DNA from: Clostridia bacterium
Lineage (GTDB): Bacteria > Bacillota > Clostridia > Christensenellales > UBA1242
NCBI GenBank assembly: GCA_963930145.1
Contig: CAWVLM010000065.1
Span: 1 to 52,246 of the forward strand
DNA: 52,246 nt
Direction of reading: 5' to 3'
In this document: positions 4,464 to 43,818 of the stretch, piece by piece
Layout: each line of letters starts with the position of its first letter
Numbering within the stretch: position 1 is the stretch's first letter
Notes under the pieces: model-generated
What the model was told of the DNA's origin: nothing
Database searches by the model: none
The model's input: only the letters and a program-made list of their open reading frames with translations
Position numbers and translations under genes: made by a program

Positions 4464-4553
4464 GGCGATTGAAAGTAAAATTTTAAAAATACTTTAAAAT
4501 TTTAAAAAAGCTTTGCTTTTTTCGCACGCCTTTTGCGTGCACTTTCAATCGCC
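4464..4553. repeat. four-way-junction (cloverleaf-like) palindromic element, copy I
   Basis: Perfect 13-bp closing stem GGCGATTGAAAGT (4464-4476) / ACTTTCAATCGCC (4541-4553). It encloses three hairpins: 4477-4503 (11 bp), 4504-4522 (8 bp) and 4524-4540 (6 bp). Confidence 0.6.
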
Positions 4554-5954: not shown

Positions 5955-7793
5955 TTACTCTTCCACTTTGTATTCAATAGGATGTTCTTGAAAATAGTTA
6001 TAGATTGTGCTTGCAAGGGCGGGCGATATTTCAGGCACTGTCTGCAAAAGCTCAACACTCGCTTTTGCAATTTCTTCACTTGTACCAAATGCTTTAAGCA
6101 GTGCGTCGCGTTTTTTAGGACCAACGCCAGGCACTTCGTCAAGAATAGACTTTGTCATTTTTGCCGTTCTGATATTTCTATGATAGGTGATTGCAAACCT
6201 GTGTGCTTCATCTCGAATACGCTGAATAAGCTTAAGTTCAACACTTCCTGGTTTTAAAAGCATAGGCTCAGAGCGATTTGGGAAGAATACCTCTTCTTGT
6301 TTCTTTGCAAGACCAATCATGTCAATTTTGTTTTCAAGCTCAAATTCTTGTAAAATTTCATAGCAGGAAGAGATTTGTCCTTTGCCACCATCAATAATAA
6401 TAAGGTCGGGTTTTTCTTTAAAGCTCTCACCATTTAGTTCAACAAGCCTTTTCAGCCTTCTTGTCAAAGCCTCTTTAAGCGAAGCAAAATCGTTTGAGCC
6501 TTTAACCGTCTTTATCTTAAATTTTCGATAATCTTTTTTGCTTGCTTCTCCATTTTTAAACACCACCATTGAACAAACCTTGTTTGTTCCGCTGATGTTT
6601 GAGATATCATAGCATTCCATACGCTCAGGCAGATTTTTTAGATGTAACTTCTCTTGCAAACTTTTTATAGCACCAATAGTATTGTTGTATTTAAGTTTTT
6701 CTTTTTCAATATATTTATTTAGATATTCTTTGGCATTTACAAGAGCCATATCAAGCAAATTTTTATTTATTCCGTGTGGATTTGTGATAATATTGACTTT
6801 TTTGTTGAAAAATTCATATAAAAGTTCTTTATCTTCAATGTTGTGCGATAAAATTATCTCGTTTGGCACAAGCAAATTTTGATAATACTGCACAATAAAG
6901 TTGAAGAGAGTTTGCCCTTCTTCAAGTTCTGCATCAAGACAAGGGTAGGATATAATACCAAGTATCTTTCCGCCACGCACAACCATATTTGTGATAACAC
7001 CGCTTAAGCCGTCAGTAAAGTAGGCAAAAACATCTTTGCTGACATCTTTAGGAAGATTTGCAACCACACGCTCTTTAAGTTTTGTTATCATTTTAAGTCT
7101 ATCGCGAAGAAGAATGGCATTTTCAAAATTTTCGTTTTCTGCTGCTTGCTGCATTTTTTTAGTTAAAATTTCTTCAATTTCTTCGTCATTTCCGTTTAAA
7201 AAGTTGATAACCCTGTCAATTTCCTTGCGATAGTCATCTTTTGAAATACGTTTTGTGCAGGGTGCAGAACAAAGACCAAGCGAGTAGTTCAAGCACTCAC
7301 GCTTCGCCATAGATGTTTCTGTGATTATAAGATTGCAAGTTCTAATTTTAAAAGCTGAATTGATGGTTTTAAGTATTTCTCTAGCATCAATTCCTGCAAA
7401 ATATGGACCAAAATATCTTGCCCCGTCTTTTTTGACTTTTCTCACAATTTCAAGCTTTGGAAAGGGGACTTTAATATCAATTTTGATATATGGGAATTGC
7501 TTGCCGTCCTTAAGAAGAATGTTATAAAAAGGTTGATATTTTTTGATTAGATTGCTCTCAAGTGCAAGAGCATCCATCTCACTCATAGTGATAAAATAGT
7601 CAAATATGTCAACATTATCAACCATTGCTTGAACTTTAGATGGCTTCGGTGAGTTTCTAAAATATTGGCTTACTCTGTTTTTAAGGTTTTTAGCCTTGCC
7701 CACATAAATAACATTGCCGTCTTTATCTCTCATTATATAGACGCCGGGCTGAGTAGTCAAAAGTTTCAACTTTTCGCGAATTTTATTATTCAT
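5955..7793 (-). CDS. uvrC: excinuclease ABC subunit C
   Basis: GIY-YIG N-terminus (GVYIMRDKDGNVIYVGKAKNLKNRVSQYF), UvrC-length 612 aa, C-terminal HhH region. Confidence 0.95.
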   Translation of the reverse strand: MNNKIREKLKLLTTQPGVYIMRDKDGNVIYVGKAKNLKNRVSQYFRNSPKPSKVQAMVDNVDIFDYFITMSEMDALALESNLIKKYQPFYNILLKDGKQFPYIKIDIKVPFPKLEIVRKVKKDGARYFGPYFAGIDAREILKTINSAFKIRTCNLIITETSMAKRECLNYSLGLCSAPCTKRISKDDYRKEIDRVINFLNGNDEEIEEILTKKMQQAAENENFENAILLRDRLKMITKLKERVVANLPKDVSKDVFAYFTDGLSGVITNMVVRGGKILGIISYPCLDAELEEGQTLFNFIVQYYQNLLVPNEIILSHNIEDKELLYEFFNKKVNIITNPHGINKNLLDMALVNAKEYLNKYIEKEKLKYNNTIGAIKSLQEKLHLKNLPERMECYDISNISGTNKVCSMVVFKNGEASKKDYRKFKIKTVKGSNDFASLKEALTRRLKRLVELNGESFKEKPDLIIIDGGKGQISSCYEILQEFELENKIDMIGLAKKQEEVFFPNRSEPMLLKPGSVELKLIQRIRDEAHRFAITYHRNIRTAKMTKSILDEVPGVGPKKRDALLKAFGTSEEIAKASVELLQTVPEISPALASTIYNYFQEHPIEYKVEE

Positions 7794-7979
7794 ATAGATA
7801 TTATAAACAAAAACTCCTTATTTTACAAGCAAAAGAGTTGCGAGCGATGGGTTTAATAAAAAATAAACTGTAAAGATAATTTAATATACAAATTTTTGTG
7901 TTAACTTTTATTTAAACCAAAAATTTTTCCAATCATGTAAAAAAAATTAAAAAATTTTTAAAAAATTTGTTAAAAATGC

Positions 7980-8010
7980 TTGACATGGGTTGCGGGGGGG
8001 GCGGTATACT
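7980..8010 (+). promoter_or_regulatory. sigma-A type promoter with a G8 tract in the spacer (P1)
   Basis: TTGACA 7980-7985 and TATACT 8005-8010. The 19-bp spacer contains GGGGGGGG at 7994-8001. An A/T-rich UP-like region lies upstream. The cassette is duplicated at 13676-13728. Confidence 0.6.
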
Positions 8011-8061
8011 AGTAGCGTAAAGATAGCCGCCATAGGCGGCTATCGCGAGCAGCTTATGCCG

Positions 8062-8153
8062 CGAGAGCGAATGTACAAACTCCAACGGAGTTTGTAAAAG
8101 GCTGACGCCTTTGGTAAATTTTTGCAGGGCAAAAATTTACACATTCGCTCTCG
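8062..8153 (+). repeat. four-way-junction (cloverleaf-like) palindromic element, copy II, in the 5' UTR of the 8219 gene
   Basis: Perfect 13-bp closing stem 8062-8074/8141-8153. Arms at 8075-8095 (9 bp), 8097-8112 (6 bp) and 8115-8139 (10 bp), with linkers of 0-2 nt. Confidence 0.6.
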
Positions 8154-8218
8154 GGCATAGGCCCGCTCGCCGAGTTAAAAAATTTTGGGGTTACCCCAGT
8201 AATAAAAGGAGAAAAATT

Positions 8219-9217
8219 ATGAGTTTTAAAATTAAGTTAATTTCAACAGTATCAGCATTTATTTTAGTATTTAGCATGCTTTTAGTAGGCGTGTTGGCTA
8301 CAACATCAGGGTTTACTATAAAATTAAAAGGCGATATTCAATTCAATATAGCAAATTCAACACTATATATAAAAGATATAAGAATATCAAATGGTTTAAC
8401 AGAAGGCGAAACAATAGATAATTTTTTGCCAAGCTTTGTTAATGAAAATTTTGAACTTGATTTAGGCACAGTTTTATCTGATAGTGGAACAGTATCCATT
8501 GAAATTGATGTTATTAACACAACGGAGACAGTATATAGTGCGAGTAGTAAGTCAAGTATAGCAGGTGCAGTTTTATCTGTCAGCGGGACTATTGCAGGTG
8601 ATAATGTGCCTCAAGAGAATGTTTTATCATACACAGGAATTTCTGGGACAGTGCACATTAGTATAAGTGCTGCTAGTTCTACAACGATAAACTTAAATGA
8701 GATAGTTGTAGATATGGCAGAAACAACAGAGCCCATTGGCTACACATTGACACTTAATAACAATGATAGTGACATAGAAGTATGGTATAAAACAGATATA
8801 AATAGTTTAAATTATAGCATACTTGACTCAAATAGCAGTGTCGAGATAAATACAAACAATTCAGATAGCTTTTACCTATATCTCACACTTAACGATGACC
8901 CTTATCCTTTTAAAGATAAAACAGAGTCTAGTTCTGAGGCTGCTTCAATAGAACCGCGTAAGTATGTTCTTAATTACCCTGTAAGTGTAAACGATGTTTT
9001 AATAGGTACATTATTATATGTGCAATCTAGTGTATTGCCGAGTACACAATATGAAGCAAACGAAGGAAGTGCAGAAGTTGGAAAGCCTGGAATTAATGTG
9101 GCGATGGAAGTTTCAGTTTCGGCAGCAGAAAATGATGTGGTGGAGACATCGGTGGACGAGTCGGGAACTATTTTAATTTGCAAAATAACAAAATCTTTAG
9201 TTATAGATATTAGATAA
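8219..9217 (+). CDS. secreted or surface protein of unknown function, paralog group with 13809..14378
   Basis: ATG at 8219 follows AAAAGGAGAAAAATT. N-terminal signal peptide MSFKIKLISTVSAFILVFSMLLVGVLA. The part of the ORF-track entry upstream of 8219 (TTG at 8111) overlaps the structured leader and is probably not translated. Confidence 0.75.
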   Translation: MSFKIKLISTVSAFILVFSMLLVGVLATTSGFTIKLKGDIQFNIANSTLYIKDIRISNGLTEGETIDNFLPSFVNENFELDLGTVLSDSGTVSIEIDVINTTETVYSASSKSSIAGAVLSVSGTIAGDNVPQENVLSYTGISGTVHISISAASSTTINLNEIVVDMAETTEPIGYTLTLNNNDSDIEVWYKTDINSLNYSILDSNSSVEINTNNSDSFYLYLTLNDDPYPFKDKTESSSEAASIEPRKYVLNYPVSVNDVLIGTLLYVQSSVLPSTQYEANEGSAEVGKPGINVAMEVSVSAAENDVVETSVDESGTILICKITKSLVIDIR

Positions 9218-11214: not shown

Positions 11215-13290
11215 TTAAATTTTTTCTTCAATAATGTTAATATCTTTAAGTAGCATGCTCCTATCTTTTTCACACACAAAGAAAAGTTTATGAAGAGCTC
11301 TTGTTGCTGAAACATAGATGATATTTTTGTCTATAGTATTTTTATAGTTTTCACTATCAGCGTTTGGAATGATTACGGCATCAAATTCAATGCCCTTAGC
11401 TGTTGCACAGGATGAGATAAGTATTCTGTTATTATAGTCTTCTGGTTCGTTTAAAAGAGTGCATTTTGTAAATTTGGAAAGCTGTTTTTGCAGGGCAGAA
11501 GCTTCTTTATTGCATTTACAGATGATCGCAATATGGTCAAAACTTTGACATTCTGTTTCGATAATTTTCAAAATTGTGGCAATTTGGTTGTTAGTTTGAT
11601 ATAACGCTGGCTCTTTGCCACTTCTATTTACAAACTCAATATCATTAAGCCCTATAAGATTATTTGCAAACTTGGCAATTTCTTTTGTTGAGCGGTAGGT
11701 TTTCTTAAGTTCAAGCAACTTGCAGCCCAAGAAATCGGCAGTTATTTGCAGATACTCAGGTGATGGATTTTTTTCAATGCATTGATGCACATCTCCCACC
11801 ACAATGCAAGGGCAAGACCATAGCTTTCTAAAAAGATAGATATCAACTGGGGTGAAGTCTTGCATTTCATCTATAATAAGGTATTTTGCAGAGAAGTCGT
11901 GGTCAAAACCATATAAAAAGTATTTAATTGCAAGGTATGTGCCTTTATCAATATAGTCTATAGTTGGTTTATTGCTTACCTTGAAGCCTTCTCTTGCCAT
12001 AAAAATCTCAAATATCTTATTGACGTCACGTATTGGCAAAAATTTATAAAGTATGCGTTTAAATCTATCACGTAAGGCTTTATTTTGTTCTCTAGTGTAG
12101 TGGCGTTCTTCGGTGAAGACCATAGCGTATTGCCAAGCAATCTTGTTTATACGCTCATATAGGTCAAGCCCTTTGAATGTTTTGAAGAAAAGCTCCTTAG
12201 TCTTTTCAGCAGGGAAGTCGACAGTCTCAACAGTGTTGTCTAGGTTTTCTTTGACCACATAAGAGAGATTTTGCGGCGTAAAAGTTTCAAGGAAAGGTCC
12301 CTTCAAAAATCTAAGCAAGCTATCAAGATATTCATAAGAAGATTTATATGATATTTCATCAAGAACGCTTTGTTTAGGACTTGTTGCTATGTCGTCAAGC
12401 ATGCTCTCTCTTGACTGAATAGGGCGTTTAAGTTCAGCTCTAGCAATCTGTGCAAAGGTGGTTTCAACAAGGTTGTCTTCGCCAAGTTGCGGCAAAACTT
12501 CAGAGATATAACTTGAAAACACGTTGTTAGGGGATATAATCAAAATATCTTTACTTTTTATCTGTCCGCGATGCTTATATAGAAGATATGCAGCTCTGTG
12601 AAGAGCTATTGATGTCTTGCCCGAACCAGCCACGCCTTGAATAAGCATGCTGTCGGCAATATCTTTTCTCATAATTTCATTTTGTTCTTTTTGAATTGAA
12701 GAAACAATCTGTTTCATCTTCACGGAAACATTTTTAGAAAGAATCTCTTGCAAGATTTCATCATTGATTGTCATGTCAGTGTCAAAGTACGATAAAAGCT
12801 GACCATCTTCTATTTTGTATTGTCTTTTAAGCTGAAGCGTTCCGCTATACTCTTCTTTGCCAATTTTGAAACTAGCAGGTCCAAGATTATAGTCATAATA
12901 CATTGAAGAGATAGGTGCTCGCCAGTCTGCAACATACAGTTTGTTGTCATCCACGATATTGCCAATGCCAATATATACCTTTTGTACTGTCTTGCGATTC
13001 TTAGGAAGAAAGTCTATACGAGCAAAATATGGATGGTCTTTTTGTAGGTATAAACGCTTTGTCTCTTTAACAATCTCGCCTTCCACAGATTCAATATCTG
13101 CAAGATTTGAATATGTCTCAGATAAGTCCAGCCCGTCTTCTTTTGCTATTTCATGGAAATTTTCAGAAAGGTCTGATACGCCAAGTTTTAACTTGTTTTT
13201 TATGCTTTTAACTCTTTCTTGGCTCTCGTTTATTTTTTTATCAATAATTTTTAATGTTTTTTCAAGATATTCTTTTTCTTTTATATCCAA
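11215..13290 (-). CDS. helD: UvrD/HelD-like superfamily 1 helicase (RNA polymerase recycling ATPase HelD-like)
   Basis: Walker A GVAGSGKTSIALHRAAYLLY, DEMQD motif (IIDEMQDFT), C-terminal VSATRALHKL. The ORF track starts at GTG 13308; TTG at 13290, preceded by AAGGGGG, is the more likely start. Confidence 0.75.
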   Translation of the reverse strand: MDIKEKEYLEKTLKIIDKKINESQERVKSIKNKLKLGVSDLSENFHEIAKEDGLDLSETYSNLADIESVEGEIVKETKRLYLQKDHPYFARIDFLPKNRKTVQKVYIGIGNIVDDNKLYVADWRAPISSMYYDYNLGPASFKIGKEEYSGTLQLKRQYKIEDGQLLSYFDTDMTINDEILQEILSKNVSVKMKQIVSSIQKEQNEIMRKDIADSMLIQGVAGSGKTSIALHRAAYLLYKHRGQIKSKDILIISPNNVFSSYISEVLPQLGEDNLVETTFAQIARAELKRPIQSRESMLDDIATSPKQSVLDEISYKSSYEYLDSLLRFLKGPFLETFTPQNLSYVVKENLDNTVETVDFPAEKTKELFFKTFKGLDLYERINKIAWQYAMVFTEERHYTREQNKALRDRFKRILYKFLPIRDVNKIFEIFMAREGFKVSNKPTIDYIDKGTYLAIKYFLYGFDHDFSAKYLIIDEMQDFTPVDIYLFRKLWSCPCIVVGDVHQCIEKNPSPEYLQITADFLGCKLLELKKTYRSTKEIAKFANNLIGLNDIEFVNRSGKEPALYQTNNQIATILKIIETECQSFDHIAIICKCNKEASALQKQLSKFTKCTLLNEPEDYNNRILISSCATAKGIEFDAVIIPNADSENYKNTIDKNIIYVSATRALHKLFFVCEKDRSMLLKDINIIEEKI

Positions 13291-13382: not shown

Positions 13383-13475
13383 GGGCTGTGAAGCTAAGAA
13401 GCCTTGCGGCTTCTTACAAAACAACAAGTTGTTTTGCCAATTTTTAAAATACTTTAAAAATCAGCTTCACAGCCC
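13383..13475. repeat. four-way-junction (cloverleaf-like) palindromic element, copy III
   Basis: Perfect 13-bp closing stem GGGCTGTGAAGCT (13383-13395) / AGCTTCACAGCCC (13463-13475). Arms at 13396-13415 (8 bp), 13417-13436 (8-9 bp) and 13440-13461 (9 bp). Confidence 0.6.
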
Positions 13476-13700
13476 ATTTGCTTAGAAAACTAACCCTAAA
13501 TCGCATCAAAAACTTTTTTTGCTTGCAAAATGTTGTTTTGATTTAAAATTATATCATATTCACTGACAAAAGTCAAGAAAGAAGCCGCCCTAGAGAGAAT
13601 ATAATAAGCCGCTTAGGAAAGAGTCATCTCAAATACAACATATAAGATAATAATATGAAAAATAAAAAATAAAAAAATTTAAAAAAATTGTTAAAAATGC

Positions 13701-13728
13701 TTGACAAACGTTGCGGGGGGGGTATAAT
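13701..13728 (+). promoter_or_regulatory. sigma-A type promoter with a G8 tract in the spacer (P2)
   Basis: TTGACA 13701-13706 and TATAAT 13723-13728. The 16-bp spacer ends in GGGGGGGG (13715-13722). The upstream 25 nt are near-identical to P1. Confidence 0.65.
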
Positions 13729-13808
13729 AGGGTAACTTAAAAATATAATATCATTTTTATTGCCCGAAAATGATATGAATATATTTTAAGTTTAAAAGGA
13801 GAAAAAAT

Positions 13809-14378
13809 ATGAGTTTAAAATTAAAATTAGCAACAAGTATCAGTGCCTTTTTTCTAGTTCTTGCAATGCTTGTCACAGGCGTGTTTGCTGCAAGAAACTT
13901 AGAATTTAACTTTGGCGGCACAGTAAACTTTGAAGCTCTCAGCGGCGAAATCGACGCACTTGTTACTGGTGAAGTAACAGGCACAGCCACACCAATAACA
14001 CTTGAAGATATATCAATAGAGCAAGGGACAGAAACTGTAACTGTTCCACTTTCATGGCAAAACATGGACTTAACTTATGCAAAAGATGGAAAACAAATAG
14101 TTTTAACAATATCTGTGCAAAATAGACGTTCTGATAGAGATTTAGAAGCTATTATATCTATGGAAGGCCTTGCAGCTAGCGAAGAACAGGCTGGAGAAGA
14201 CAATGTATATGGGTTTTTTGGCAATGTACCACCATCTAGTAGTGAAACTTTATCTATTAAACCAAATCAATCAGGTGAAGTTGACTTTAGAATAAACATA
14301 GTAGATAAATTCGCACCTGTTGATAATGTCAACGTAACATTCACAATTTCGCTGCAAGACAGAGAGCCAACAGCATAA
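13809..14378 (+). CDS. secreted or surface protein of unknown function, paralog of 8219..9217
   Basis: Same RBS context (AAAAGGAGAAAAAAT ATG). Signal peptide MSLKLKLATSISAFFLVLAMLVTGVFA aligns with that of the 8219 gene. Confidence 0.75.
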   Translation: MSLKLKLATSISAFFLVLAMLVTGVFAARNLEFNFGGTVNFEALSGEIDALVTGEVTGTATPITLEDISIEQGTETVTVPLSWQNMDLTYAKDGKQIVLTISVQNRRSDRDLEAIISMEGLAASEEQAGEDNVYGFFGNVPPSSSETLSIKPNQSGEVDFRINIVDKFAPVDNVNVTFTISLQDREPTA

Positions 14379-31963: not shown

Positions 31964-34900
31964 TTATGCTTCGGGTACTTCTTGTGCGACACCTTCCGCT
32001 TCTTCAGCTTCAGCTTCAGGTGCCGCTTCAGTTCTTTCAGGCGTTCTAGCCCTCTCTTCTTCCGCTCTTCTAGCCGCCTCTGCTTCTCTATCTGCCTTTT
32101 TCTTAGAAAGGAAGCTAAAAATTCCTCGAGCTTTAGCTAAAGTCTCAGAGCGTTGTCCGCCAAGTTCGGCAGCCGAGCTTCTTGTAGTGGCAAGGATTGA
32201 AGTATTATAAGCAGCCTCAGCATCGATTTTTAATCCTACATATTTTTCTCTAATTTTAGCTATAAGTTTTTTCTTTTGACCTTTGATTTTTGCAAGAAGA
32301 GCAGCATTTGCCTTTTTATTTTTTTCGGCTATAATGCGTGCTTTTTCTGGCGAAAGACCTTTAGTGTCAATTTTTTTGCTTGAGCTTTGTCTAAGTTTTT
32401 TAATATCTTTTTCAATTCCGAGCTTCTCAAATAGATAAAGGTCAAGATTGCCAAAGTTCAATCCTTCAGGATTAAATTCGCTTGCATGAGCTTCAAAGAA
32501 TGCCGAATCTCCATCTATAAAAGCATTGATAAGGTCGTTTGCGTATTGATATTCAGGATGCTCAGCGATGTAGCCTTCAATTGCTTTCATCTTTTTTTCA
32601 AATTCCTTCCAGTCAGCCTCACATCTTTCAAGGTCGTCTTTGGCTGCATTAGCTTTGCGTTCGGCAGGAGAGTTTCCGTCTCTTGCTGCATCTGTGTGGT
32701 GTTGTTTATCTTCAAGACGCTTTTCTTGGATTTCAATCTGTTTTTGCAATTTTTTAGCCTTTTTCAAACTTTCTTCAAGTCGACCTTGCCTAATTTTTGC
32801 CAAGCCTTCTGGGGTAAATTTATCATCAATCGTTTGATTTATTTGTTTATCAATTTCTTTTATGTCGCCGTTGATGCCAAGAATTTCAAACATGTAAAGG
32901 TCATTGTTGCCAATTTCAATACCTTCAGGCATAGCCTCAGGATTTTCGATAAAGTATGAAATATCGCCATTTATAAAGCCATTTAAAATTTCAATGCCAT
33001 AAGGGTAGTCAGGATTTTTAGCAAGGTAAGAATCAATAGCCGCTAATGTTGTATCATACTTTGCTTTAGCTTCTTGAAATTTTTGAAGGTCATATTTCTC
33101 AGCATTAGCCTTGCGGTCGTCTTCTGTTTCGCCTTCTCTAGCAGCATCTGCACGACCCTTGTTATTTTCAAGACGAAGTTTTTGAATATCTAATTCTTTG
33201 CCAATGCCTTTTTTAAGTTCTTCAATCTTCGCATTTTTTTCATTTGCATCTAAAGATGTGTCTTCTAAAAGTTTAATTAGTTTATCGATTGATTTTTCAT
33301 TTATACCAGTTGCAACAAGACCTTTGTTGACCTTGTCCACGGCTTTAGCTAGGTCATCAGCCTCGAGATTTCCAGAAAGGATAGCCTCAATTTCAGTTTC
33401 GTATTTGGCTCTATTTATATCAAATACTCGAACATCTCTGTTTGCCTTGAAATATTCAATATTTTCTTCAGATGGCAATTCATCTAAAACATGCTTCTTA
33501 GCTTGCCTATATTCTTCTTGATAGCTTTTAGGTAGCAAAGACATAATATAATTTTCTCTATCTTTCGGCTTGGTGTCATTAAGTTTAATTGCAAGTTTTT
33601 CCATAAATTCTTCTTTGCTTGCAGCCTTGATTTTAGGTGAACGAGAAGCCATTGCCTCTTCATCGTAAAGTATTTCAGCAAGAAGATCAACAGTTGTAGG
33701 GTATTTGATATCTTTTTCTAGAGCTTCTTTTCTAGCTCTATATTCACTATCAACATAAGCTTTGCCATATCTTGCTCTAGCCGCAGTAAGATTTATAGAT
33801 GTTCGTCTGTCAATGGCTTGATTTTTATCCCTGCAAAATTCAGTAAATCCAGCGGCTTTTTTTGCTTTTTCTTGATTATTTGCAGAAGGTGATTCGATAT
33901 CAGAGTACCTTGCTATAATATCATAAATTTTTTCGCCATCAACTTTCTCGCGTTCCATGAAAGGCTTGATTTGCTCAATAAGAGCTTTATTAAAATCAAG
34001 ATTAGGGTCGAGCGAATGGGCTTTATCAGGTTCTGTTTTAATGCCTTGTCTTTCTTCTTCAGAGATAGGAAGATTTTCAAGAATTTCACATAAGTTACCA
34101 TACTTTCCGATATTTTCAGAAAGATTTTTCCCCGCATTTTCGACAGCGTCAAGATTTCTTGTAATTTTATGTTCTGGGTCTAGCACGCTTTCAAAAGCTC
34201 GCTGGTCATAGGCTACAGAGAATGAGCCGTCAAGGATTGCAATCGTCAGTTTTTCAGCACTATCATAAACTTTAAATTTAGCGTCATATTTTGCTGAATC
34301 GAACGCTTTTCCTTCTTTTTTAGCTTCATTGATTGCTTTTTCTCTTTCATCCTCAAGCCTAGCCCTTTGTCCTTCAATTCCAAGTCTAGTTATAATAATT
34401 TCTCTTTGCATATCAGGGGAAAGAGTTGCAAAATAAGGGTATTTTTTTGTATATTCCTTAACAATATCTTCTTCGCTATGAACAAAGAATGCATCTTTAT
34501 CATCTTTTTTTGCTTTTATATCATAATTAGCAACCAGATAAACTTTCTTGTCTGGGTCATATTGAACAAGAGGCGTACCCTTTTCTTTTTTAGCAAATGG
34601 AGATGAAAGTTGTGATAAAGCCTTAGAAATTTGTTCTTGTTTGGCATTTTGATAATTTACTCTGCCTATTGAATATTTAGCAGCGGAAATAGCGGTTGCA
34701 TCGGCTGTAGCCGTGACAGAGAGCTTGCCGATGGTCATTGAAATTTTACCATCATCACCAATAGCCACTTTATAGTCATTTACAAGAGCGGAAAGCGACC
34801 TTTTATTCAAAACAGCTCTAAAGGCTTCAGGTTCAATACCATCAATATTTTTTGCTTGGTCAACCATGAATGTTATAAGGTCATTTTTTGCAAATGTATC

Positions 34901-37891
34901 TGCAACAGCATATATAGTGTGGCTTTTTTCAAGTTTTCTTGAAGAAGGGTCTGCAAGCAAACCGCCGCTTGCGAGTATACTTGAGCCTGTTTCAGAGGTA
35001 GCCGTATAGAGAGAAGCAACTCTTCTAAAATAGCCACTTCCATTTAAAGCACCATCAATAGCCGCCATTTCGCTGCTTGGCTTATTAGGCTTAAGCATTG
35101 ACAAAGTTTCATTTACACTTGCAAGAACATTCTTTTCAACCACTCCAGTAACAGAAGCAGGGGTGTCCTTAGCAACATTATCTTCAAGTTTTTCAGCGTA
35201 ACCATCGTAGTAGGTAAGGCTATAGGTTTTCAAATAATCTTCGCTTGCATTGACACAGGCGTTAAAGGATGTGACTTTATCTTTGCTAGCAACAATGTCA
35301 TCTACGGAAGCTTTAAATTCTTGAAGAAGGTCAACTTTCTTATGCTCTTCAACGTTTGCTTTAGCTTCTTTATCAATAATTTCTATGTCTGAGTTAATTT
35401 GAGCTGCCGCATCATTTAAAATTGCAACAACTTGGTCTCTGCTTTCTTCTGGCACATTTTCAATCATTTGATTTAGAACTTCAGTTGATCCGCCATGTGT
35501 AAGGATAGCGTTTTGGATGATATCAGTGCCATATCTTTCAAAGAATTTGATTCTTTGTTCTTCTGACATCTTATCAGTGCCAGCAAGATATTTCAGTCTA
35601 TAAACGTCTGCATTTTTTACGAATTCACTTTGTTCTTCATGAAGAGTTCGTTCTTTAATTTGTGCAGAGTTTGCTTCATTTAAGGCTGCAACATAATTAC
35701 GTAGATTTTCATTGTTTTCAGGTGTAAATAGCCCTTCAACACTTGCCCTTTGGTTGGCACTAAGATTTGTAAAATAACTTATAGTAAAATCTTCAACAAG
35801 AGCCTGTCTAGTCTTAGGGTCGTCAGTTTTGGCGATTTGGTCAAGACTCATTGCCATAGCAAGGCGGGTATCAAGGTTTTCAAGGTTGCATAGATTGTGA
35901 ATGTTACTGCTGCCATCAGCTGACTCAGTAACACCAATCCCGTTTGCGTTATAAAGAGCTGCAAAATCTCTAGCAAATGCATTATCAGACAATTCTTTGT
36001 TATGCATCTTGTCAAGAACAGCTATTCTATCAGCAGAAGCGTTTTCAAGATTGTCAAGTTCTCTTTCATTTTCAAGGAAATTCTCTCTACCATCAAACTC
36101 TGCAGACTGTTCTTTTTCATAACCGTCAAGTTTATGTTTGATTCTTCTAAATGGGCTAAACACAAGTTTATCAGCGAAGGTAGATTGCAAAAGCCCAATG
36201 CCTGCCATAATTGCACCAGGAATCATTGCAAGCAGACCAACACCTGGGATAAGCGAGCAAACCATCAGCCAAATACCAATAGTTGAGAGCGTTTCGCCCA
36301 TAACATTATTGACTGTTTTCAGGGTGTCTTTAAAGGCTTTGTTTTTTTCATCATTGCGAGCCTTTTGTTCGGCAATATAGTTTTCAAGACTTTTATCTTC
36401 TTCGTCTTGTTCTGCTTTTTTGTCTTCATTAGGCTTTGGCTTAGTATCGTTGCCGCCACCCGAGCCGCCATTGTCGCTACTTTCGCCGCCATCGCCACCT
36501 TCTTCTGCTGGCTCATCTTTGTCGCCTTCAGGTTGACTATCGCTTCCAGTATTGCTCTCACCAAGATTTGTATTGTCGCCAGCTTCAGGCGTGTCGCCAT
36601 CTTGAGCTCTTGAGTCGCCGCTAGGAGTCTCATCGCCGCCATCGGAAGAATCGCCATCCCCAGACGCATCAGAGTCGTCGGGAGCGTCGCCTTGCTGCAC
36701 GGCAGACACTATTCCGTCACCATTTTTGCGTGAATGGTATAGCTCAGGGCTTATGGTTTCTGTAACCGTCAAATTTCTTTCATTTATAGAAAACACAACT
36801 GGGTTAGAAGACCTGCCGTCATGTTGTTTTGCGGCAATAGTTATCTTTTCATCAGCAATAGGTATATCAAATTGTTTTAATCCTTCACTTTTACCAGTAG
36901 TCTCTGGCATAAAATTCAGCCCACTATTATTTGTTAAAAGTTCATAAGCTTGAGCAAATTCTGGTGATGTGACGCCTGCACTAGAAATAGGGATAGGAAT
37001 TTGATAGTTATAACTAGGCTTAGAAGATGTTTCTATGTGCATAGAGTAGTGATATTTGCCATTTTCATCTTTTTCGTATAAGAAAGTAAGGTCGCTTTTA
37101 CAATTAACCATTTTGCCTTCAACGTAAAGATAACGCACTTCTTCGCCTTTAGAGTTTCTTTGTTTAACAAAGCAGCAAGGTGGGATGTCTGCACCAAAAT
37201 TAAGCTTAGTAAAAGTTATATCCTTCAAATCAACACTGCTATTGTCTTTCATGCCACAGAAATATTCACCAATTATGTTGGCTGGCAGGGTATTTACACT
37301 AGAGACAGGGCTGAATATACTTGCACCTTCTTTGCTTGAAAGCATATCTTTAACAACCCGTCTATTAACTGTTATGTCAATACAACTTTCATTGTTTGTA
37401 GAGTAGGTATATTTTGTTTTGTCGTCGCCGTCTCCATATTCTAGCGATATAGAAGTTGGCGAAGCCACAATGGTATAAGGTTTTTTATCTTTCGCACTAA
37501 CTGTGATAACAATTTGGTCGTTATTTCTTTTCATAGAAATTGCGTTACTATCAGGACCAATTTCAAGACCATTTTCACTAAATATTGCCTTTAAAGTTTG
37601 GTCAGCTTCAATGGACTGTTCTTCTTCATTTAAAAATTTGCCAAGATTTTTAAGCTTAACAAAATGTTTTTTTTCTGTTGGCTTTGCAGGGTCAGCAATA
37701 GAGTAAACAGACATAATTGACTGTTGATTATTTTCAGCCGTATTAGTTGTCAGGTCAAATAAAGTTTGCACGCCACCGCTTGCACGTGTGTTAACCATAG
37801 AAACCTTTTGCGTAAGTCTAGATTGAGTTTTGCCTTCACTAGACTTAACTCTCACATTTTGAATAGAAACCATTGGATAAGTTTTAGCCAT
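31964..37891 (-). CDS. giant orphan protein (~1975 aa) with a central TM hairpin
   Basis: Uninterrupted ORF. The likely start is ATG at 37891 after GAGG. There is no N-terminal signal peptide. From N to C: a ~440-aa domain, a D/G/S/E low-complexity acidic linker (~36400-36700), two adjacent hydrophobic segments (~36190-36300), a ~1400-aa charged helical region and two ~110-150-aa tandem repeats (32390-33175). Confidence 0.8.
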   Translation of the reverse strand: MAKTYPMVSIQNVRVKSSEGKTQSRLTQKVSMVNTRASGGVQTLFDLTTNTAENNQQSIMSVYSIADPAKPTEKKHFVKLKNLGKFLNEEEQSIEADQTLKAIFSENGLEIGPDSNAISMKRNNDQIVITVSAKDKKPYTIVASPTSISLEYGDGDDKTKYTYSTNNESCIDITVNRRVVKDMLSSKEGASIFSPVSSVNTLPANIIGEYFCGMKDNSSVDLKDITFTKLNFGADIPPCCFVKQRNSKGEEVRYLYVEGKMVNCKSDLTFLYEKDENGKYHYSMHIETSSKPSYNYQIPIPISSAGVTSPEFAQAYELLTNNSGLNFMPETTGKSEGLKQFDIPIADEKITIAAKQHDGRSSNPVVFSINERNLTVTETISPELYHSRKNGDGIVSAVQQGDAPDDSDASGDGDSSDGGDETPSGDSRAQDGDTPEAGDNTNLGESNTGSDSQPEGDKDEPAEEGGDGGESSDNGGSGGGNDTKPKPNEDKKAEQDEEDKSLENYIAEQKARNDEKNKAFKDTLKTVNNVMGETLSTIGIWLMVCSLIPGVGLLAMIPGAIMAGIGLLQSTFADKLVFSPFRRIKHKLDGYEKEQSAEFDGRENFLENERELDNLENASADRIAVLDKMHNKELSDNAFARDFAALYNANGIGVTESADGSSNIHNLCNLENLDTRLAMAMSLDQIAKTDDPKTRQALVEDFTISYFTNLSANQRASVEGLFTPENNENLRNYVAALNEANSAQIKERTLHEEQSEFVKNADVYRLKYLAGTDKMSEEQRIKFFERYGTDIIQNAILTHGGSTEVLNQMIENVPEESRDQVVAILNDAAAQINSDIEIIDKEAKANVEEHKKVDLLQEFKASVDDIVASKDKVTSFNACVNASEDYLKTYSLTYYDGYAEKLEDNVAKDTPASVTGVVEKNVLASVNETLSMLKPNKPSSEMAAIDGALNGSGYFRRVASLYTATSETGSSILASGGLLADPSSRKLEKSHTIYAVADTFAKNDLITFMVDQAKNIDGIEPEAFRAVLNKRSLSALVNDYKVAIGDDGKISMTIGKLSVTATADATAISAAKYSIGRVNYQNAKQEQISKALSQLSSPFAKKEKGTPLVQYDPDKKVYLVANYDIKAKKDDKDAFFVHSEEDIVKEYTKKYPYFATLSPDMQREIIITRLGIEGQRARLEDEREKAINEAKKEGKAFDSAKYDAKFKVYDSAEKLTIAILDGSFSVAYDQRAFESVLDPEHKITRNLDAVENAGKNLSENIGKYGNLCEILENLPISEEERQGIKTEPDKAHSLDPNLDFNKALIEQIKPFMEREKVDGEKIYDIIARYSDIESPSANNQEKAKKAAGFTEFCRDKNQAIDRRTSINLTAARARYGKAYVDSEYRARKEALEKDIKYPTTVDLLAEILYDEEAMASRSPKIKAASKEEFMEKLAIKLNDTKPKDRENYIMSLLPKSYQEEYRQAKKHVLDELPSEENIEYFKANRDVRVFDINRAKYETEIEAILSGNLEADDLAKAVDKVNKGLVATGINEKSIDKLIKLLEDTSLDANEKNAKIEELKKGIGKELDIQKLRLENNKGRADAAREGETEDDRKANAEKYDLQKFQEAKAKYDTTLAAIDSYLAKNPDYPYGIEILNGFINGDISYFIENPEAMPEGIEIGNNDLYMFEILGINGDIKEIDKQINQTIDDKFTPEGLAKIRQGRLEESLKKAKKLQKQIEIQEKRLEDKQHHTDAARDGNSPAERKANAAKDDLERCEADWKEFEKKMKAIEGYIAEHPEYQYANDLINAFIDGDSAFFEAHASEFNPEGLNFGNLDLYLFEKLGIEKDIKKLRQSSSKKIDTKGLSPEKARIIAEKNKKANAALLAKIKGQKKKLIAKIREKYVGLKIDAEAAYNTSILATTRSSAAELGGQRSETLAKARGIFSFLSKKKADREAEAARRAEEERARTPERTEAAPEAEAEEAEGVAQEVPEA

Positions 37892-38121
37892 AAAAACCTC
37901 ACATATATAAACTATAATTACATATATAATAATACCATTATAAAAGCATTTTGTCAAGAATTTAAAGGTTTATGTTGCTCTCAAGGCAAAAGATAATAGA
38001 TATTTTTAAAAAACTATTTATTATTTTGCCGCAAAATGCAATCAAGCAAAACAATCAAAAAAACATATAAATGTTTTTTGTCAAAGACTAAGCATTGCAA
38101 AAAGGCAGGGGATTAAATTCA

Positions 38122-38157: not shown

Positions 38158-40419
38158 TTATTCAGCTTCATATTCTTCAACAGGGGCATTTTGAGCTGCT
38201 TTAATTTTATCTATTACGCTTTCAATGTCTGCCATATATTTGCCCACTTTCTCGCTATCTTCTTGAGTGAAATATTGTCTATAATAATCAGCTCTTGTTT
38301 CAATTGAGTTGCCAGGTCTTGCAATATTGCTTTGCTCGCCAAGTCTTGCACCAGCAACGTTTTCAGCTTCATCGGTAATTCTCGCCATTTCATCGACATA
38401 AGAAATTGTGGATGTAACTTTTTGTCCGTTTTGTTTCTTTGTACGCCTAATTTTAAGGTTTCCGATTTTCTTAGCTTTAGCATCAACTGCTTCTTTATCT
38501 TCAGGCAATTTTATCTTTGAGAGAATTGTGCCTATTCGTTTTGCAAGTTGTTCGCGAACGCCATCAGTATTCTTAGCGACAACGCTATCACCGGCAGTTA
38601 AGCGTTCTCTTTCAAGCTGGCGTTTGATTTCATCTAGTTTTTCAAGCCCTTCGCTAGCTTTTTGGTAGTTATCATCTCTAGCGGTCACATGCTCGTCTTT
38701 ATCATCTTGTAAGCTTACAGTTTGTTCTTCAACTCTTGAAATAGTGCTATCAATAGCCTCTCTTTGCATTGCATTCATAACCGCAGAAAGTTTCAAGTCC
38801 TTTTTATCTGCAACCTCAGGATTGAGAGCGTCAAGAAGGCGGCTATCAATTTCAAAGTCACGTATGTCTTTATTGCTTTCAATAAAAGCTTTAACAGCTT
38901 CGTTTGTTCTTATAAAGTTGAATAGCGTCTCAAGTTGGTCAACAGAAAGGTTTTCAAAGGCGGTATCAAGATTAGCACCTTTTTCAACATTGCTTCCAAA
39001 GATTATTTCGGCAACCATTTTAAGGTCTCCAGGGTTCGGCGAGTGTCTAACATTTTTATATTTGAAATCTTTAAGAAGGTTATCTCCAACATTATATTCA
39101 CTGCCATTTACAATAGCTTGAGCATGAGCCTTCATAATATCAAATATATCTTTCATAACTTTTTCTTGTCTAGTCGTGTAAAGATAGGATTTTCTCTTGC
39201 CATCAGAGCCCACTTCAATTTTGGCTTTAAATATATCGTTTGAGTGGTCAACAGTGTCATCATTATTATAAGCAGCAATAGCGTCAACAAGTGCGTCATA
39301 ATCAGACAAGTTTTTATCAAATACCACTTGGAAATTGCCGTTTTCAGCACTTGCCAAGTCCTGGCCAAGTGTGTTTCTATCAAATATGAAAGAGAACCCT
39401 TTTGTTTTGCCATCTTTAACAGTATCGTCATAATAAGCAACAGGGAAATCTCTTGCTATAGCACGGAAAGCGTCCATAAATTCATCTCTTCGCTCAGCAG
39501 CAGGCTTAACGATATCTTTACCTTTAACCCAGTTGCGAAGAATAGCATGTTCATCTTCATTTTCGTCATACTCTTCTTTAAGAGCGGCAAGTTTTTCAGA
39601 AATGATAGCGGCTTGACCAAGTTTTTCATCTATATCTTTAATAGCGGCATTGTTTGCTGCCACTTCTATAATGCTTGCATCATATTCTTTAATGATAGCT
39701 GTTGCATTTTTGCCAGCTTCGGCAGTTTCGTTAGCTCTTTCAACTTCGGCATCAACTCTTTCAGCAAGAAGGGCGTCACAACGTTTTTGAGCGTAAGATG
39801 CACCTTTAATATAGATGTCGGCATTATTATATGTTTCGTCATTTACAATTTCAGGGTTGAATTCAGGCAATGTATAGCCATTGATATCAGGATCAGCATA
39901 TTCTTTAACAACTTTCATAAGTTCTTCAAATGCCTTTTCTCCTTCTTCACCATAAATGTCTCTCATATTGCAAATACCAATGTAGTTTGCTTTGATATAA
40001 GCAAGTGCTCTAGCTTTTGCTTGAGTCTGTTTTGCAATAAGAGCATAAGCTTTTTTGTCCTGTTCAGAAAGATTTGTTCCACCTGCGAAATATTTAAATA
40101 GCCCATCAGCGGTAAGTTTTGTAGCATCGTTAGACGCTTGCTTTCTTTGATAGTTTAAAACGTCCATTCTGTCTTGAAATTCAGAAACATCCACAAAATT
40201 TCCTAAATTTTTAACATAATCAACGACTTCTTGAAGTGTTTTTCCTGTTGCAATTTTATCGAAATGTTTAACAGCAGCAACTTCAAACTCTCCAGCTTCC
40301 TTTACGCTAGCACTCTTTTTAAGGTTTGCCATTTTTAAGACTTTAGGGCTTTTAATCTCTCCTGCCTTTCCAGAGAAAACGCTAGCGATTTTTGAAATGA
40401 TATTTTTAAATAATCCCAT
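38158..40419 (-). CDS. orphan 753-aa charged, predicted alpha-helical protein
   Basis: RBS AAAAGGAG. No TM segment and no recognisable motif. The N-terminus MGLFKNIISKIASVF could form an amphipathic helix. Confidence 0.75.
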   Translation of the reverse strand: MGLFKNIISKIASVFSGKAGEIKSPKVLKMANLKKSASVKEAGEFEVAAVKHFDKIATGKTLQEVVDYVKNLGNFVDVSEFQDRMDVLNYQRKQASNDATKLTADGLFKYFAGGTNLSEQDKKAYALIAKQTQAKARALAYIKANYIGICNMRDIYGEEGEKAFEELMKVVKEYADPDINGYTLPEFNPEIVNDETYNNADIYIKGASYAQKRCDALLAERVDAEVERANETAEAGKNATAIIKEYDASIIEVAANNAAIKDIDEKLGQAAIISEKLAALKEEYDENEDEHAILRNWVKGKDIVKPAAERRDEFMDAFRAIARDFPVAYYDDTVKDGKTKGFSFIFDRNTLGQDLASAENGNFQVVFDKNLSDYDALVDAIAAYNNDDTVDHSNDIFKAKIEVGSDGKRKSYLYTTRQEKVMKDIFDIMKAHAQAIVNGSEYNVGDNLLKDFKYKNVRHSPNPGDLKMVAEIIFGSNVEKGANLDTAFENLSVDQLETLFNFIRTNEAVKAFIESNKDIRDFEIDSRLLDALNPEVADKKDLKLSAVMNAMQREAIDSTISRVEEQTVSLQDDKDEHVTARDDNYQKASEGLEKLDEIKRQLERERLTAGDSVVAKNTDGVREQLAKRIGTILSKIKLPEDKEAVDAKAKKIGNLKIRRTKKQNGQKVTSTISYVDEMARITDEAENVAGARLGEQSNIARPGNSIETRADYYRQYFTQEDSEKVGKYMADIESVIDKIKAAQNAPVEEYEAE

Positions 40420-40670: not shown

Positions 40671-43403
40671 ATGGGACTTTTTGGTAATGAAAACAAATCA
40701 CAGATAAAGAAATTAAGGAAGATAGCAGACAAGGTTATAGCACTTGAAGATAAATATAAAGGCTATTCAAACGAGCAGCTTCGTGCCTGCACTGATGAGT
40801 TTAAAAATAGATACAAGACGGGCGAAACTTTAAACGACCTTCTTCCAGATGCATACGCAGTTGTAAGGGAAGCGGCATCAAGAGTGCTAAATATGAGACA
40901 TTTTTATGTGCAGATTCTTGGCGGCATCGCACTTCATCAAGGCAGAATTGCAGAGATGGCAACAGGTGAAGGCAAAACTCTTGTAGCAACTCTTCCTGCA
41001 TATTTAAATGCAATCACGGGCAAGGGTGTGCATGTTGTCACTGTCAATGAATACCTTGCAAAGCGTGACGCTGATTGGATGGGAAAGGTATATAAATTTT
41101 TAGGGCTCACAGTCGGCGTTTCACTAAACAGGCAGAATAACGAGCAGAAGAAACAGGCATATCTTGCCGACATCACATATACCACAAATAACGAGCTTGG
41201 TTTTGACTACTTAAGAGATAACATGGCAAGGTCGAAAAACGAACGTGTGCAAAGGGGACTCAACTTTGCAATCGTCGATGAAGTTGATAGCATCTTGATT
41301 GACGAGGCAAGAACGCCACTTATCATAAGCGGCCGTGGCAGCAAGTCAACTGATGGCTATATGATTGCACAAAAGTTTGTAAAGACTTTAAGGCAAGATA
41401 GCGATATTGATATAGATATCAAAACCAAACAAATCAACCTTACAGATAAGGGTATTAGGAAGGCTGAAAGCTTTTATCATATAGATAATCTGTCAGATAT
41501 TGAGAATATAGAGCTAAGTCACTACATCAACAACGCCTTAAAGGCAAACTTTATCATGCATAGAGATGAAAACTATATTGTAAAGGATGGCGAAGTGATT
41601 ATAGTTGATGAGTTTACTGGTCGTCTTTCACCAGGCAGACGCTTTAGCTCTGGTCTTCATCAAGCTATTGAAGCGAAGGAAGGCGTTGATATCCGCGATG
41701 AAAATCAAACTTTTGCAACTATAACCTTCCAAAATTTCTTCCGTCTATATAAAAAATTATCAGGTATGACAGGTACAGCTAAGACAGAAGAAGGTGAATT
41801 TAGAACAATCTATAACCTTGACGTTGTCACAATTCCGTCAAATAAACCAAAGCAGAGAATAGACTATCCTGACAAGATGTACGTCACTGAAAAGGGTAAG
41901 ATTGCCGCCATTATTGAAGAGATAAAAGAGTGCGTGGAAAGTGGGCAGCCTGTGCTTGTCGGCACAATCAATATTGATAAGTCAGAGCAGCTTTCAAACG
42001 CTCTTCGACATGCAGGCATTAAGCATCAGGTATTGAACGCTAAAAATAATGAAAAAGAAAGCGAAATTGTCGCTCAAGCGGGCAGAAAGGGCACGGTGAC
42101 TATTGCAACCAATATGGCTGGTCGTGGAACTGATATCTTGCTTGGCGGTAACCCTGAGTTTATGGCAACAAAGGAAATGAGAGATAAAGGCTTTAGTGAA
42201 GAAGAAATCTTATATGCCACAGCTTTCAACTATATTGATGACGAAGCATTAAATAAGGCAAGAGAAGAATATAATAAGTTTTATTCTAAGTTCAAAGAAA
42301 TAACAGACAAAGAAAAACAAGAAGTTATCTCACTTGGTGGACTTAAGATTATAGGTACTGAGCGACATGAGTCACGCCGTATTGATAATCAGCTCCGCGG
42401 ACGTTCTGGTCGTCAAGGTGACCCAGGCTCAAGCATATTCTTCCTTTCTCTTGATGATGATTTATTTAAGAGATTTGCAACTGATAAGCTTCGCAAACTT
42501 CTTGCCTTCTTTAAGGTTGATGACTCAACACCAATTCAGTTAAAGGCGATTTCAAAGCAGATAGAAGCCTCTCAACGAAAGATAGAGCTTCAAAATTTCA
42601 GTATAAGAAAAACTGTTTTGCAGTTTGACGATGTTATGAATAAACAAAGAGAGATTATCTATAAAGAGCGTAACGAAGTGCTAGATGGTCAACCTGTACA
42701 TGACCAAATTGTCAAGATGTTCCCAGATGTTGTCACAAAGAGTGTCACAAAGATAATCTCGGACGACCGCCCATATTATGAATGGGATTTGGAAGCACTT
42801 AATAAAGAGCTTGAAAATGGTCTTCTTGATAAGGATAGCGGTGCCATCACAGAAGATTTTGTTGAAGGATGCGATGTCAATGATGTGATAGAAAAAGTGC
42901 TTGATATAATCTATAAAAAGTATGACGAACGTCACAAGGAAGTGGCAGCTATAGGCGTCAATTTTGAAGATATAGAACGCAATGTTCTTCTAAGAATGGT
43001 TGATATAAATTGGATGAGCCAAATAGAGAACATGCAGATAATGAAAGATGAAATTCTTTCTCGCCAATTTGGGCAACAAGACCCTGTCATGGCATATAAG
43101 AAGGAAGGGTTTGACATGTTCGACTCAATGATAGACAAAATCAAAGAGACCACATGTAAGATTTTATTGAATGCAAGAATACAAGCTCGTCCTGCCATGC
43201 CTGAGCAGCCAGCGCCTGCCAAGATAATTTTCACAGGCAAGCAGCTCACACCAGAAGAGCGGGCAGCACAGCAACAAAAACGCAAGCTTCAAGTTCAAAA
43301 AACAGTATATAATGATAAGCCTAAAGCGGGCAGAAATGACCCTTGTCCATGCGGAAGCGGCAAAAAATACAAAAACTGCTGCTGGGATAAAGATCACCAA
43401 TAA
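40671..43403 (+). CDS. secA: preprotein translocase ATPase SecA
   Basis: MATGEGKTLVATLPAYLNA, DEVDSILIDEARTPLIISG, TNMAGRGTDI and the C-terminal zinc motif CPCGSGKKYKNCC. Confidence 0.97.
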   Translation: MGLFGNENKSQIKKLRKIADKVIALEDKYKGYSNEQLRACTDEFKNRYKTGETLNDLLPDAYAVVREAASRVLNMRHFYVQILGGIALHQGRIAEMATGEGKTLVATLPAYLNAITGKGVHVVTVNEYLAKRDADWMGKVYKFLGLTVGVSLNRQNNEQKKQAYLADITYTTNNELGFDYLRDNMARSKNERVQRGLNFAIVDEVDSILIDEARTPLIISGRGSKSTDGYMIAQKFVKTLRQDSDIDIDIKTKQINLTDKGIRKAESFYHIDNLSDIENIELSHYINNALKANFIMHRDENYIVKDGEVIIVDEFTGRLSPGRRFSSGLHQAIEAKEGVDIRDENQTFATITFQNFFRLYKKLSGMTGTAKTEEGEFRTIYNLDVVTIPSNKPKQRIDYPDKMYVTEKGKIAAIIEEIKECVESGQPVLVGTINIDKSEQLSNALRHAGIKHQVLNAKNNEKESEIVAQAGRKGTVTIATNMAGRGTDILLGGNPEFMATKEMRDKGFSEEEILYATAFNYIDDEALNKAREEYNKFYSKFKEITDKEKQEVISLGGLKIIGTERHESRRIDNQLRGRSGRQGDPGSSIFFLSLDDDLFKRFATDKLRKLLAFFKVDDSTPIQLKAISKQIEASQRKIELQNFSIRKTVLQFDDVMNKQREIIYKERNEVLDGQPVHDQIVKMFPDVVTKSVTKIISDDRPYYEWDLEALNKELENGLLDKDSGAITEDFVEGCDVNDVIEKVLDIIYKKYDERHKEVAAIGVNFEDIERNVLLRMVDINWMSQIENMQIMKDEILSRQFGQQDPVMAYKKEGFDMFDSMIDKIKETTCKILLNARIQARPAMPEQPAPAKIIFTGKQLTPEERAAQQQKRKLQVQKTVYNDKPKAGRNDPCPCGSGKKYKNCCWDKDHQ

Positions 43404-43574
43404 CTGGTGAGACACCAAAGCCATAACGCTGACACGCTGAAAAATTCAGCTAACAGCTATGGCACGCAATTTTAACGATAGGACATTAAAATTGCTTTCG
43501 GTTTCTCTCCCAAGCCTCTTCCACCCCAGACAAAAATTTTCTAAATTTTTGTCTTAATAAGGACCCGCAAGGGG

Positions 43575-43818
43575 TGAATTATATTGGGGTAACACCAAAA
43601 TTTTTTAGACTAAAAGTTGCAGGGTTTAAGCCTGCAACTTTTAGTCTAACTCCTTACAGAGAACGCGGACACAAGCCTAACGCTTGGTGACTGTCAGACT
43701 AAGTATAATCTAAATTATAAGAGTTTTATTTCCGCTCTCTAACTAAAATTTCGGTTTTCCGACTTGGGCTCCCGCAAAATCTCCGATTTTGTGGGTAAAA
43801 GTAAGGACCCATAAGGGT
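43575..43818 (+). repeat. modular structured intergenic repeat, copy B
   Basis: Reverse-complement homolog of 30285-30523. It includes an 18-bp perfect hairpin (43605-43622/43630-43647). It is bounded by direct copies of AAGGACCC..AAGGG(G)T at 43557-43575 and 43802-43818. Confidence 0.7.

Follow-up and report, generated by a model that had tools for sequence, protein, structure and literature searches.

Spacers of 17 bp between the -35 and -10 hexamers are optimal for promoter activity, those of 16 and 18 bp are usable, and those of 15 and 19-20 bp are poor. At porA, a single locus of a Gram-negative pathogen, slippage alters this spacing and hence the volume of transcription, and variation from strain to strain and within strains is documented over 9-11 G. 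In Mycoplasma hyorhinis, the promoter, 5' region and signal peptide of the vlp paralogs are highly conserved and the mature proteins diverge; each copy, with a homopolymer of its own between -35 and -10, is switched independently. Promoter geometry also depends on repeat length at the fimbrial subunit genes fim2/fim3 of B. pertussis (poly-C) and hifA/B of H. influenzae (TA repeats). For T. pallidum, passages of a study on these promoters describe poly-G tracts of 7-12 nt in the promoters of paralogous surface-protein genes, namely tp0126 and the tpr genes tprE/G/J/F/I/L (PMC7864442). The same passages place the tp0126 tract between the -35 and -10 elements, give 8 G or fewer as permissive for the tpr genes, put optimal expression from the poly-G spacers of N. 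meningitidis porA and T. pallidum tp0126 at 17 bp, and state that a single length dominates at most promoters within a population (PMC7864442). The literature on phase variation in gut commensals was found to be dominated by invertons; that on gut commensals and Clostridia yielded invertons and coding-region tracts, and no promoter-spacer homopolymer family in Clostridia was found in it. To our knowledge, nearly all known cases of phase variation in gut commensals involve invertible promoters.

The window, by which we mean the whole stretch of 52,246 nt that was analysed, has a GC content of ∼35% and the gene content of an ordinary chromosome (uvrC, hisS, a UvrD-like helicase, gyrA/gyrB, metG, a sigma factor and secE-nusG-rplKA). 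Three very large ORFs on the minus strand (31964-37957, 1,997 aa; 47366-52171, 1,601 aa; 38158-40419, 753 aa) had no Pfam match at E <= 1e-5. The initial annotation had described a G8 run at 7994-8001 between TTGACA and TATACT in a 19-bp spacer, and reading of the sequence confirmed all of these coordinates. The second copy of the cassette that it reported was also recovered, with the correction that the -35 hexamer and the GTTGC motif are separated by 3 nt in both copies and not by 3-4 nt. At both loci the G run does separate the two hexamers of a very good sigma-A-type promoter, ahead of a gene for a protein with a signal peptide. The putative elements of the two copies are as follows.

7939..7979, + strand: copy 1 upstream region, A/T-rich and UP-element-like, ending in TTGTTAAAAATGC (read from the sequence)
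7980..7985, + strand: copy 1 -35 hexamer TTGACA (read from the sequence)
7986..8004, + strand: copy 1 spacer of 19 bp, tgggttgc followed by G8 and cgg
7994..8001, + strand: copy 1 G8, unbroken, candidate slippage site
8005..8010, + strand: copy 1 -10 hexamer TATACT, in the register of TATACT in L081 and TAAACT in L015
8011..8218, + strand: copy 1 leader of ∼200 nt, hairpin-rich; a 5' hairpin (8022-8044) is followed by three hairpins closed by a long stem (8045-8170), a further hairpin (8185-8199) and the RBS AAAGGAGA (8205-8212)
8219..9217, + strand: copy 1 gene, encoding a secreted or surface protein of 332 aa in which a signal peptide and a conserved N-terminal beta domain precede a variable C-terminus
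13681..13700, + strand: copy 2 upstream element, an A-tract plus TTGTTAAAAATGC
13701..13706, + strand: copy 2 -35 hexamer TTGACA
13707..13722, + strand: copy 2 spacer of 16 bp, aacgttgc followed by G8
13715..13722, + strand: copy 2 G8, unbroken, directly adjoining the -10 hexamer
13723..13728, + strand: copy 2 -10 hexamer TATAAT
13729..13808, + strand: copy 2 leader of 80 nt; a 5'-proximal hairpin (13734-13792) is followed by the RBS AAAGGAGA (13795-13802)
13809..14378, + strand: copy 2 gene for a 189-aa secreted protein that has just the signal peptide in common with copy 1

The two cassettes have the same order of phased A-tracts, -35, TGC, G run, -10, strong RBS and signal peptide. The A-tracts of copy 1 start at 7939, 7949, 7960 and 7972, which corresponds to a phasing of ∼10-12 bp, and this upstream region was also kept in copy 2 and in related loci. 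The cassettes are identical across ∼45 nt, both loci have the RBS and start sequence TAAAAGGAGAAAAAnTATGAGTTT as well as the signal peptide in common, and the 19-mer TTGTTAAAAATGCTTGACA has just two sites in the window, one in each copy. A promoter scan with spacers of 16-18 bp ranked copy 2 first in the region, with 12/12 hexamer matches; copy 1 is absent from its list because a 19-bp spacer exceeds the scanned range. In both copies a homopolymer of at least ∼7 nt is located between recognisable hexamers, and these two tracts are the only G/C runs of at least 7 nt in the 52-kb window (4 overlapping matches observed against 0.34 expected, with none of 100 shuffles reaching 4). The copy 2 G8 recurred in L098 and L099, which are independent assemblies from the same species, and is therefore not an assembly artefact of the window. 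A poly-G read artefact of two-colour chemistry was likewise rejected, because the position of the tract is the same in numerous independent assemblies.

Conservation of the hexamers, the UP-like A-tracts and the 5' hairpin of the leader lends indirect support to the hexamers being a functional promoter, which they probably are. The G's beside the -10 hexamer could instead belong to the motif of an alternative sigma factor, for example one of sporulation, and the spacing to TTGACA would then be irrelevant. Forespore sigma-F-type -10 elements start with GG, and GGGTATAATA would fit a GGnnAnAnT-type -10, which we take to be the B. subtilis consensus. The organisms are also spore formers: related contigs, which come from gut metagenomes, carry GerA, SpoIIR, SpoVG and YpeB as neighbours of the family genes, and the hosts are therefore spore-forming Clostridia. 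However, any GG followed by TATAAT fits the sigma-F motif trivially, almost every lineage has kept TTGAC(A/G), and copy 2 matches the sigma-A consensus 12/12, at 16-bp spacing and together with an array of UP-like A-tracts. As the Sec-type signal peptides and the very strong RBSs moreover suggest vegetative surface proteins, recognition by such a sigma factor appears scarcely credible. Three further candidates were discarded: reiterative transcription of the B. subtilis pyrG type, because the tract precedes the -10 instead of coinciding with the start site; an intramolecular G-quadruplex, because four G tracts cannot come from a single run; and a MerR-type long-spacer promoter, because the spacer contains no dyad.

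Folding of the copy 1 leader gave an MFE of -103 kcal/mol (z = -11), and its architecture was kept, with different sequence, in the leaders of L081, L015, L084 and L089. The copy 2 leader has the 5'-proximal hairpin only, which is conserved in L081 and L093. Across lineages the 5' hairpin begins 5-11 nt past the -10 hexamer, and such hairpins fit stabilised, highly expressed mRNAs. At the Rfam gathering score, no match was obtained for the leaders in the window, L015, L084, L086, L089 and L090; the Rfam matches elsewhere in the searched sequences were tRNA, OLE RNA and SRP RNA only. The gene for OLE (ornate large extremophilic) RNA was located at 2942-3519 of L090 (371 bits), directly 3' of a family gene.

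The architecture of a stem enclosing three hairpins was also observed outside leaders, at 4464-4553 and 13383-13475 of the window, and L081/L082 carried two such elements upstream of the copy 2 promoter that are absent from the window (∼12266-12375 and ∼12545-12675 in L081). These dispersed elements are 90-135 nt long and cloverleaf-like, with a closing stem and three hairpins. They share their architecture and are diverse in sequence, with a recurring AAACTC-GAAN-GAGTTT hairpin. Some are located in leaders, others in intergenic regions or ahead of promoters. Their presence or absence differed between strains, and both strands folded about equally well; no Rfam family matched them. A second type of intergenic repeat consists of the blocks GGTGAGACACCAAA ... 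GGTTTCTCTCCCAAGCCTCTTCC(A/G)CCCC ... GGACCCGCAAGGGGT. It was located at ∼43400-43650 of the window, between a 910-aa ORF and the secE-nusG region, at ∼9230-9420 of L089 and at ∼9050-9520 of L086, and in related genomes several copies are upstream of family promoters.

BLAST detected no relationship between the mature proteins of the two copies. Exact-protein look-ups gave no match for either window protein and homologues were used instead. The copy 1 protein has close relatives (93-97% identity) and ∼45 more distant ones, which share the signal peptide and an all-beta N-terminal domain of ∼150 aa and have unrelated C-termini. A profile search of 1.84 billion representative proteins returned 421 clusters in which the conserved domain was always N-terminal; total lengths within the family ranged from ∼100 to 1,466 aa, and some members contain BspA-type leucine-rich repeats. 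Neither window protein had a significant match in Pfam and NCBIfam, and a profile search of PDB sequences gave no significant match. Two AlphaFold models compared with the PDB by Foldseek had no significant match either, the best being FimA pilin with E = 0.014 and a TM of 0.3. The modelled fold is a beta-sandwich of no known affiliation. The signal peptides MSFKIKLISTVSAFILVFSMLLVGVLA-TT and MSLKLKLATSISAFFLVLAMLVTGVFA-AR contain no cysteine and hence no lipobox. We infer a surface location, and the family appears to consist of variable surface-type proteins. At 2993-3139 of L015, a poly-G promoter and a structured leader are followed by a 48-aa ribbon-helix-helix protein (Pfam RHH_1, 21.2 bits), with a 504-aa BspA-LRR member of the family downstream of it. 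This RHH_1 protein is a possible locus-specific regulator.

A scan of a genome collection with the 19-mer of the upstream cassette returned 27 loci, 25 of which were generic strong promoters. The other two were a true relative, L015, and an unrelated small-RNA-like repeat with a G-rich spacer, L014. The latter (7600-7960, from an unrelated Clostridia MAG) contains TTGACAAATTGCGCGGGCGGGTATATAAT twice in tandem, with a GC-rich hairpin and terminators behind each copy; the repeats look like duplicated small-RNA genes whose spacer is G-rich and non-homopolymeric. A metagenome scan with the G-run-independent pattern AAAATGCTTGACANNNGTTGC returned 53 loci and no new G8 instance. In total, 11 distinct promoter lineages were recovered (window, L015, L081, L084, L086, L089, L090, L093 and L097). 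They follow one pattern, TTGAC(A/G) or TTGATA, then 7-8 nt ending in TGC, the G run, 0-4 nt and TAnAnT. The start of the G run is thus at a fixed distance of 7-8 nt from the -35 hexamer and its end at a variable distance of 0-4 nt from the -10 hexamer. The five bases after the -35 hexamer vary freely (tgggt, aacgt, aacat, cgcgt, aaaat, aaaaa). Within the tracts, by comparison, a single substitution was found over ∼88 positions of the 11 lineages, and the run was pure in 10 of them, across proteins that are just 36-60% identical. All ten G/C runs of at least 6 nt in 147.7 kb of non-redundant family loci (∼35% GC) were spacer tracts. As the tract remained pure while neighbouring spacer bases diverged, its purity is under selection, and as G runs are absent elsewhere from the family loci, the tract is family-specific. 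The cassette is characteristic of a multigene family of secreted proteins of spore-forming gut Clostridia.

This pattern of conservation bears on the reading that the tracts have no function, the G8s being identical by descent from a duplicated or gene-converted cassette and all other length differences being errors of sequencing or assembly. The ∼45 nt of identity between the window cassettes do suggest duplication or gene conversion, and one of the variant tracts, in L085, is only 16 nt from a contig end. However, descent leaves unexplained a tract that is pure across proteins of 36-60% identity when the other spacer bases have diverged, and the absence of any other G run of at least 6 nt from 148 kb. 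Errors are also a poor account of the length differences described below, because the same assemblies were error-free at dozens of A/T runs and the G10 variant is in the middle of a 281-kb scaffold. We consider a tract of no function very unlikely.

Differences in tract length were confined to two loci and amounted to 2 nt at each. These comparisons are between consensus assemblies, and assemblers collapse heterogeneity in tract length. At the first locus (P0010), L084 has G9 and a 17-bp spacer and L085 has G7 and a 15-bp spacer; over 4,146 aligned nt there were 0 substitutions and the tract was the sole difference. At the second locus (P0022), the tract was again the sole difference between L086 (G10) and L088 (G8), with 0 substitutions in 5,020 aligned nt. 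L086 and L087 (G8) likewise had 0 substitutions over 14,140 aligned nt and differed in the tract and in one 37-bp indel, which is intergenic (∼423-460 of L086) and upstream of a leucyl-tRNA-synthetase-like gene. All 43 A/T runs of at least 6 nt in the 14-kb stretch of L086/L087 were unchanged, and none of the dozens across the P0010 and P0022 comparisons differed, which argues against generic homopolymer error. Tract-only differences between otherwise identical assemblies carry what appears to be the signature of a hypermutable tract. Different settings were also found within single samples. In BRZ_CD the spacers were 16 bp (copy 2 of L081), 15 bp (L089), 20 bp (L015) and 17 bp with an interrupted tract (copy 1 of L081), and in ONAT22-1 they were 16 bp, 17 bp (G9, L084) and 17 bp interrupted. 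The differently set loci of one sample probably belong to one genome.

Copy 2, on the other hand, was strikingly constant. G8 and a 16-bp spacer were found in the window, L098, L099, L081=L082 and L093-L096 (plus 7 collapsed contigs), and also in L097, which is from another context. The locus thereby covers four lineages with proteins 59-99% identical: besides the window, L098/L099 at 99% identity, the L081=L082 lineage at 93% and the species of L093-L096 at 59%. The length was unchanged despite flanking substitutions (TTGATA, ATTGC, TACAAT, TAAAAT), and, between the window and L098/L099, despite single-base indels in A/T runs within 1.7 kb of it. In the UP-like region at 13670-13690 of the window, for instance, A7 corresponds to A6 and T7 to T8 in L098/L099, and the G8 is the same. 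For copy 1, the length comparison is with the sister lineage L081/L082 (93%), because the contigs of the nearest relatives, P0002 and P0003, end inside the leader. In L081/L082 the spacer reads tgggtt GGGGTGGG tgg, so that an interrupted tract is combined with a 17-bp spacer, a TGn extended -10 and an intact gene. This arrangement looks like a phase-locked ON derivative.

The initial annotation had taken the 19 and 16 bp of the two window copies as a sign of independent switching. This argument does not hold, since both tracts are G8 and the difference consists of three non-tract bases (CGG) before the -10 hexamer of copy 1. Extra bases at this position were found elsewhere, G8 being followed by tgg in L090 (19 bp) and by tgag in L015 (20 bp). 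Its expectation that tract length varies among related genomes was borne out at two family loci (G9/G7 and G10/G8/G8) and failed at copy 2, which was always G8. The initial annotation had itself named an invariant length as evidence against switching, and the recovery of G8 at copy 2 in every assembly accordingly counts against free switching there. The proposed phase-variation switch thus lost the contrast within the window as support and has the constant copy 2 against it. It retained the tract as a hallmark of the family together with the length differences at two paralogs, and on this family-level evidence the general idea seems to survive.

On balance, and with a slight lean only, we favour the explanation that the hypermutability of this family of strong sigma-A-type promoters resides in the G8 runs, which act as a slipped-strand switch, either for expression volume or on/off. 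[quoted passage not shown] Expression would be full at ∼17 bp, reduced at 16 or 18 bp, and low or off at 15 or 19-20 bp. Copy 2, at 16 bp, is predicted to be expressed, and copy 1, at 19 bp and with CGG in place of TGG and hence without the extended -10, to be weak or off, the loss of two G being required to reach the optimum. The constant G8 of copy 2 would then reflect steady selection for the expressed state, and second-order selection for switchability may be what keeps the tracts pure. Such a switch presupposes that spacer length controls expression at the family promoters, as is probable, and, likewise presumably, that populations switch often enough for it to be of use.

Several observations speak against the slippage switch. 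Variation is limited to two loci, by 2 nt at each, and one of the variants (G7 of L085) is close to a contig end. G8 is the modal length (8 of the 11 lineages) and is found even where it makes the spacer 19-20 bp long (copy 1 of the window, L015 and L090=L091), which means either that these loci are off in all sampled populations or that length is irrelevant. The copy 2 G8, moreover, did not change although indels occurred in nearby A/T runs. The modal G8 and the constant copy 2 would be expected of a fixed promoter element, in which TGC-G8, 8 nt after the -35 hexamer, is conserved and sequence-specific, be it as the operator of a family-wide regulator or as a G-rich structural or extended -10-like element, and in which G7, G9 and G10 are incidental slippage mutations or assembly noise. 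The invariance of copy 2 in four lineages and L097, the fixed distance of the tract from the -35 hexamer next to its variable distance from the -10 hexamer, and the fact that every tract has G on the sense strand agree with such an element. However, common descent of duplicated cassettes explains the constant strand and position equally well, no operator-like dyad or repeat was observed, and no candidate binding protein was identified. Length variation of 2 nt in clonal backgrounds is evidently tolerated at two loci, and the lineage with GGGGTGGG in place of the tract has a 17-bp spacer and an intact gene. We regard a fixed element as the main rival of the switch, possible but less likely. A more specific form of it, in which TGC-G8 is the family-specific element for a factor that coordinates surface-protein expression, perhaps mutually exclusively, with slippage being secondary, seems unlikely to us. 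The leaders with a stem and three hairpins could be part of the same TGC-G8 control system.

The mechanism of a slippage switch is already known from pathogens and is not new in itself. If the favoured explanation is true, uncultured spore-forming gut Clostridia use a pathogen-style homopolymer in the promoter spacer instead of invertons, and the switch covers a minimum of five surface-protein genes that are dispersed in each genome, where G runs are otherwise absent. The pattern TTGAC-N8-Gn-TAnAAT would then be a simple marker for contingency genes in metagenomes, and tract lengths would provide a read-countable proxy for the surface proteins that a population expresses.

When compared with the described systems, the cassette resembles porA in that a surface-protein gene has a sigma-70-type promoter whose spacer contains an unbroken G run. 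It differs in being multi-copy, in occurring in Gram-positive gut Clostridia, and in varying at two paralogs only, with copy 2 constant. T. pallidum is a GC-rich spirochaete with poly-G tracts over many genes, whereas here the GC content is ∼35% and G runs are found in one family only; its proteins are unrelated to those of the family. The vlp tract is poly-A, the vlp products are lipoproteins and the vlp genes are clustered, whereas the tract here is poly-G, the signal peptides have no lipobox cysteine and the genes are dispersed, so that the likeness is one of logic only. At fim2/fim3 the C stretch is between the site of an activator (BvgA) and the -10, and no activator site was recognised here; the hif repeat is a dinucleotide, unlike the G homopolymer. 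The family thus belongs to none of the porA, tp0126/tpr or vlp gene families and, by analogy, would work like all three.
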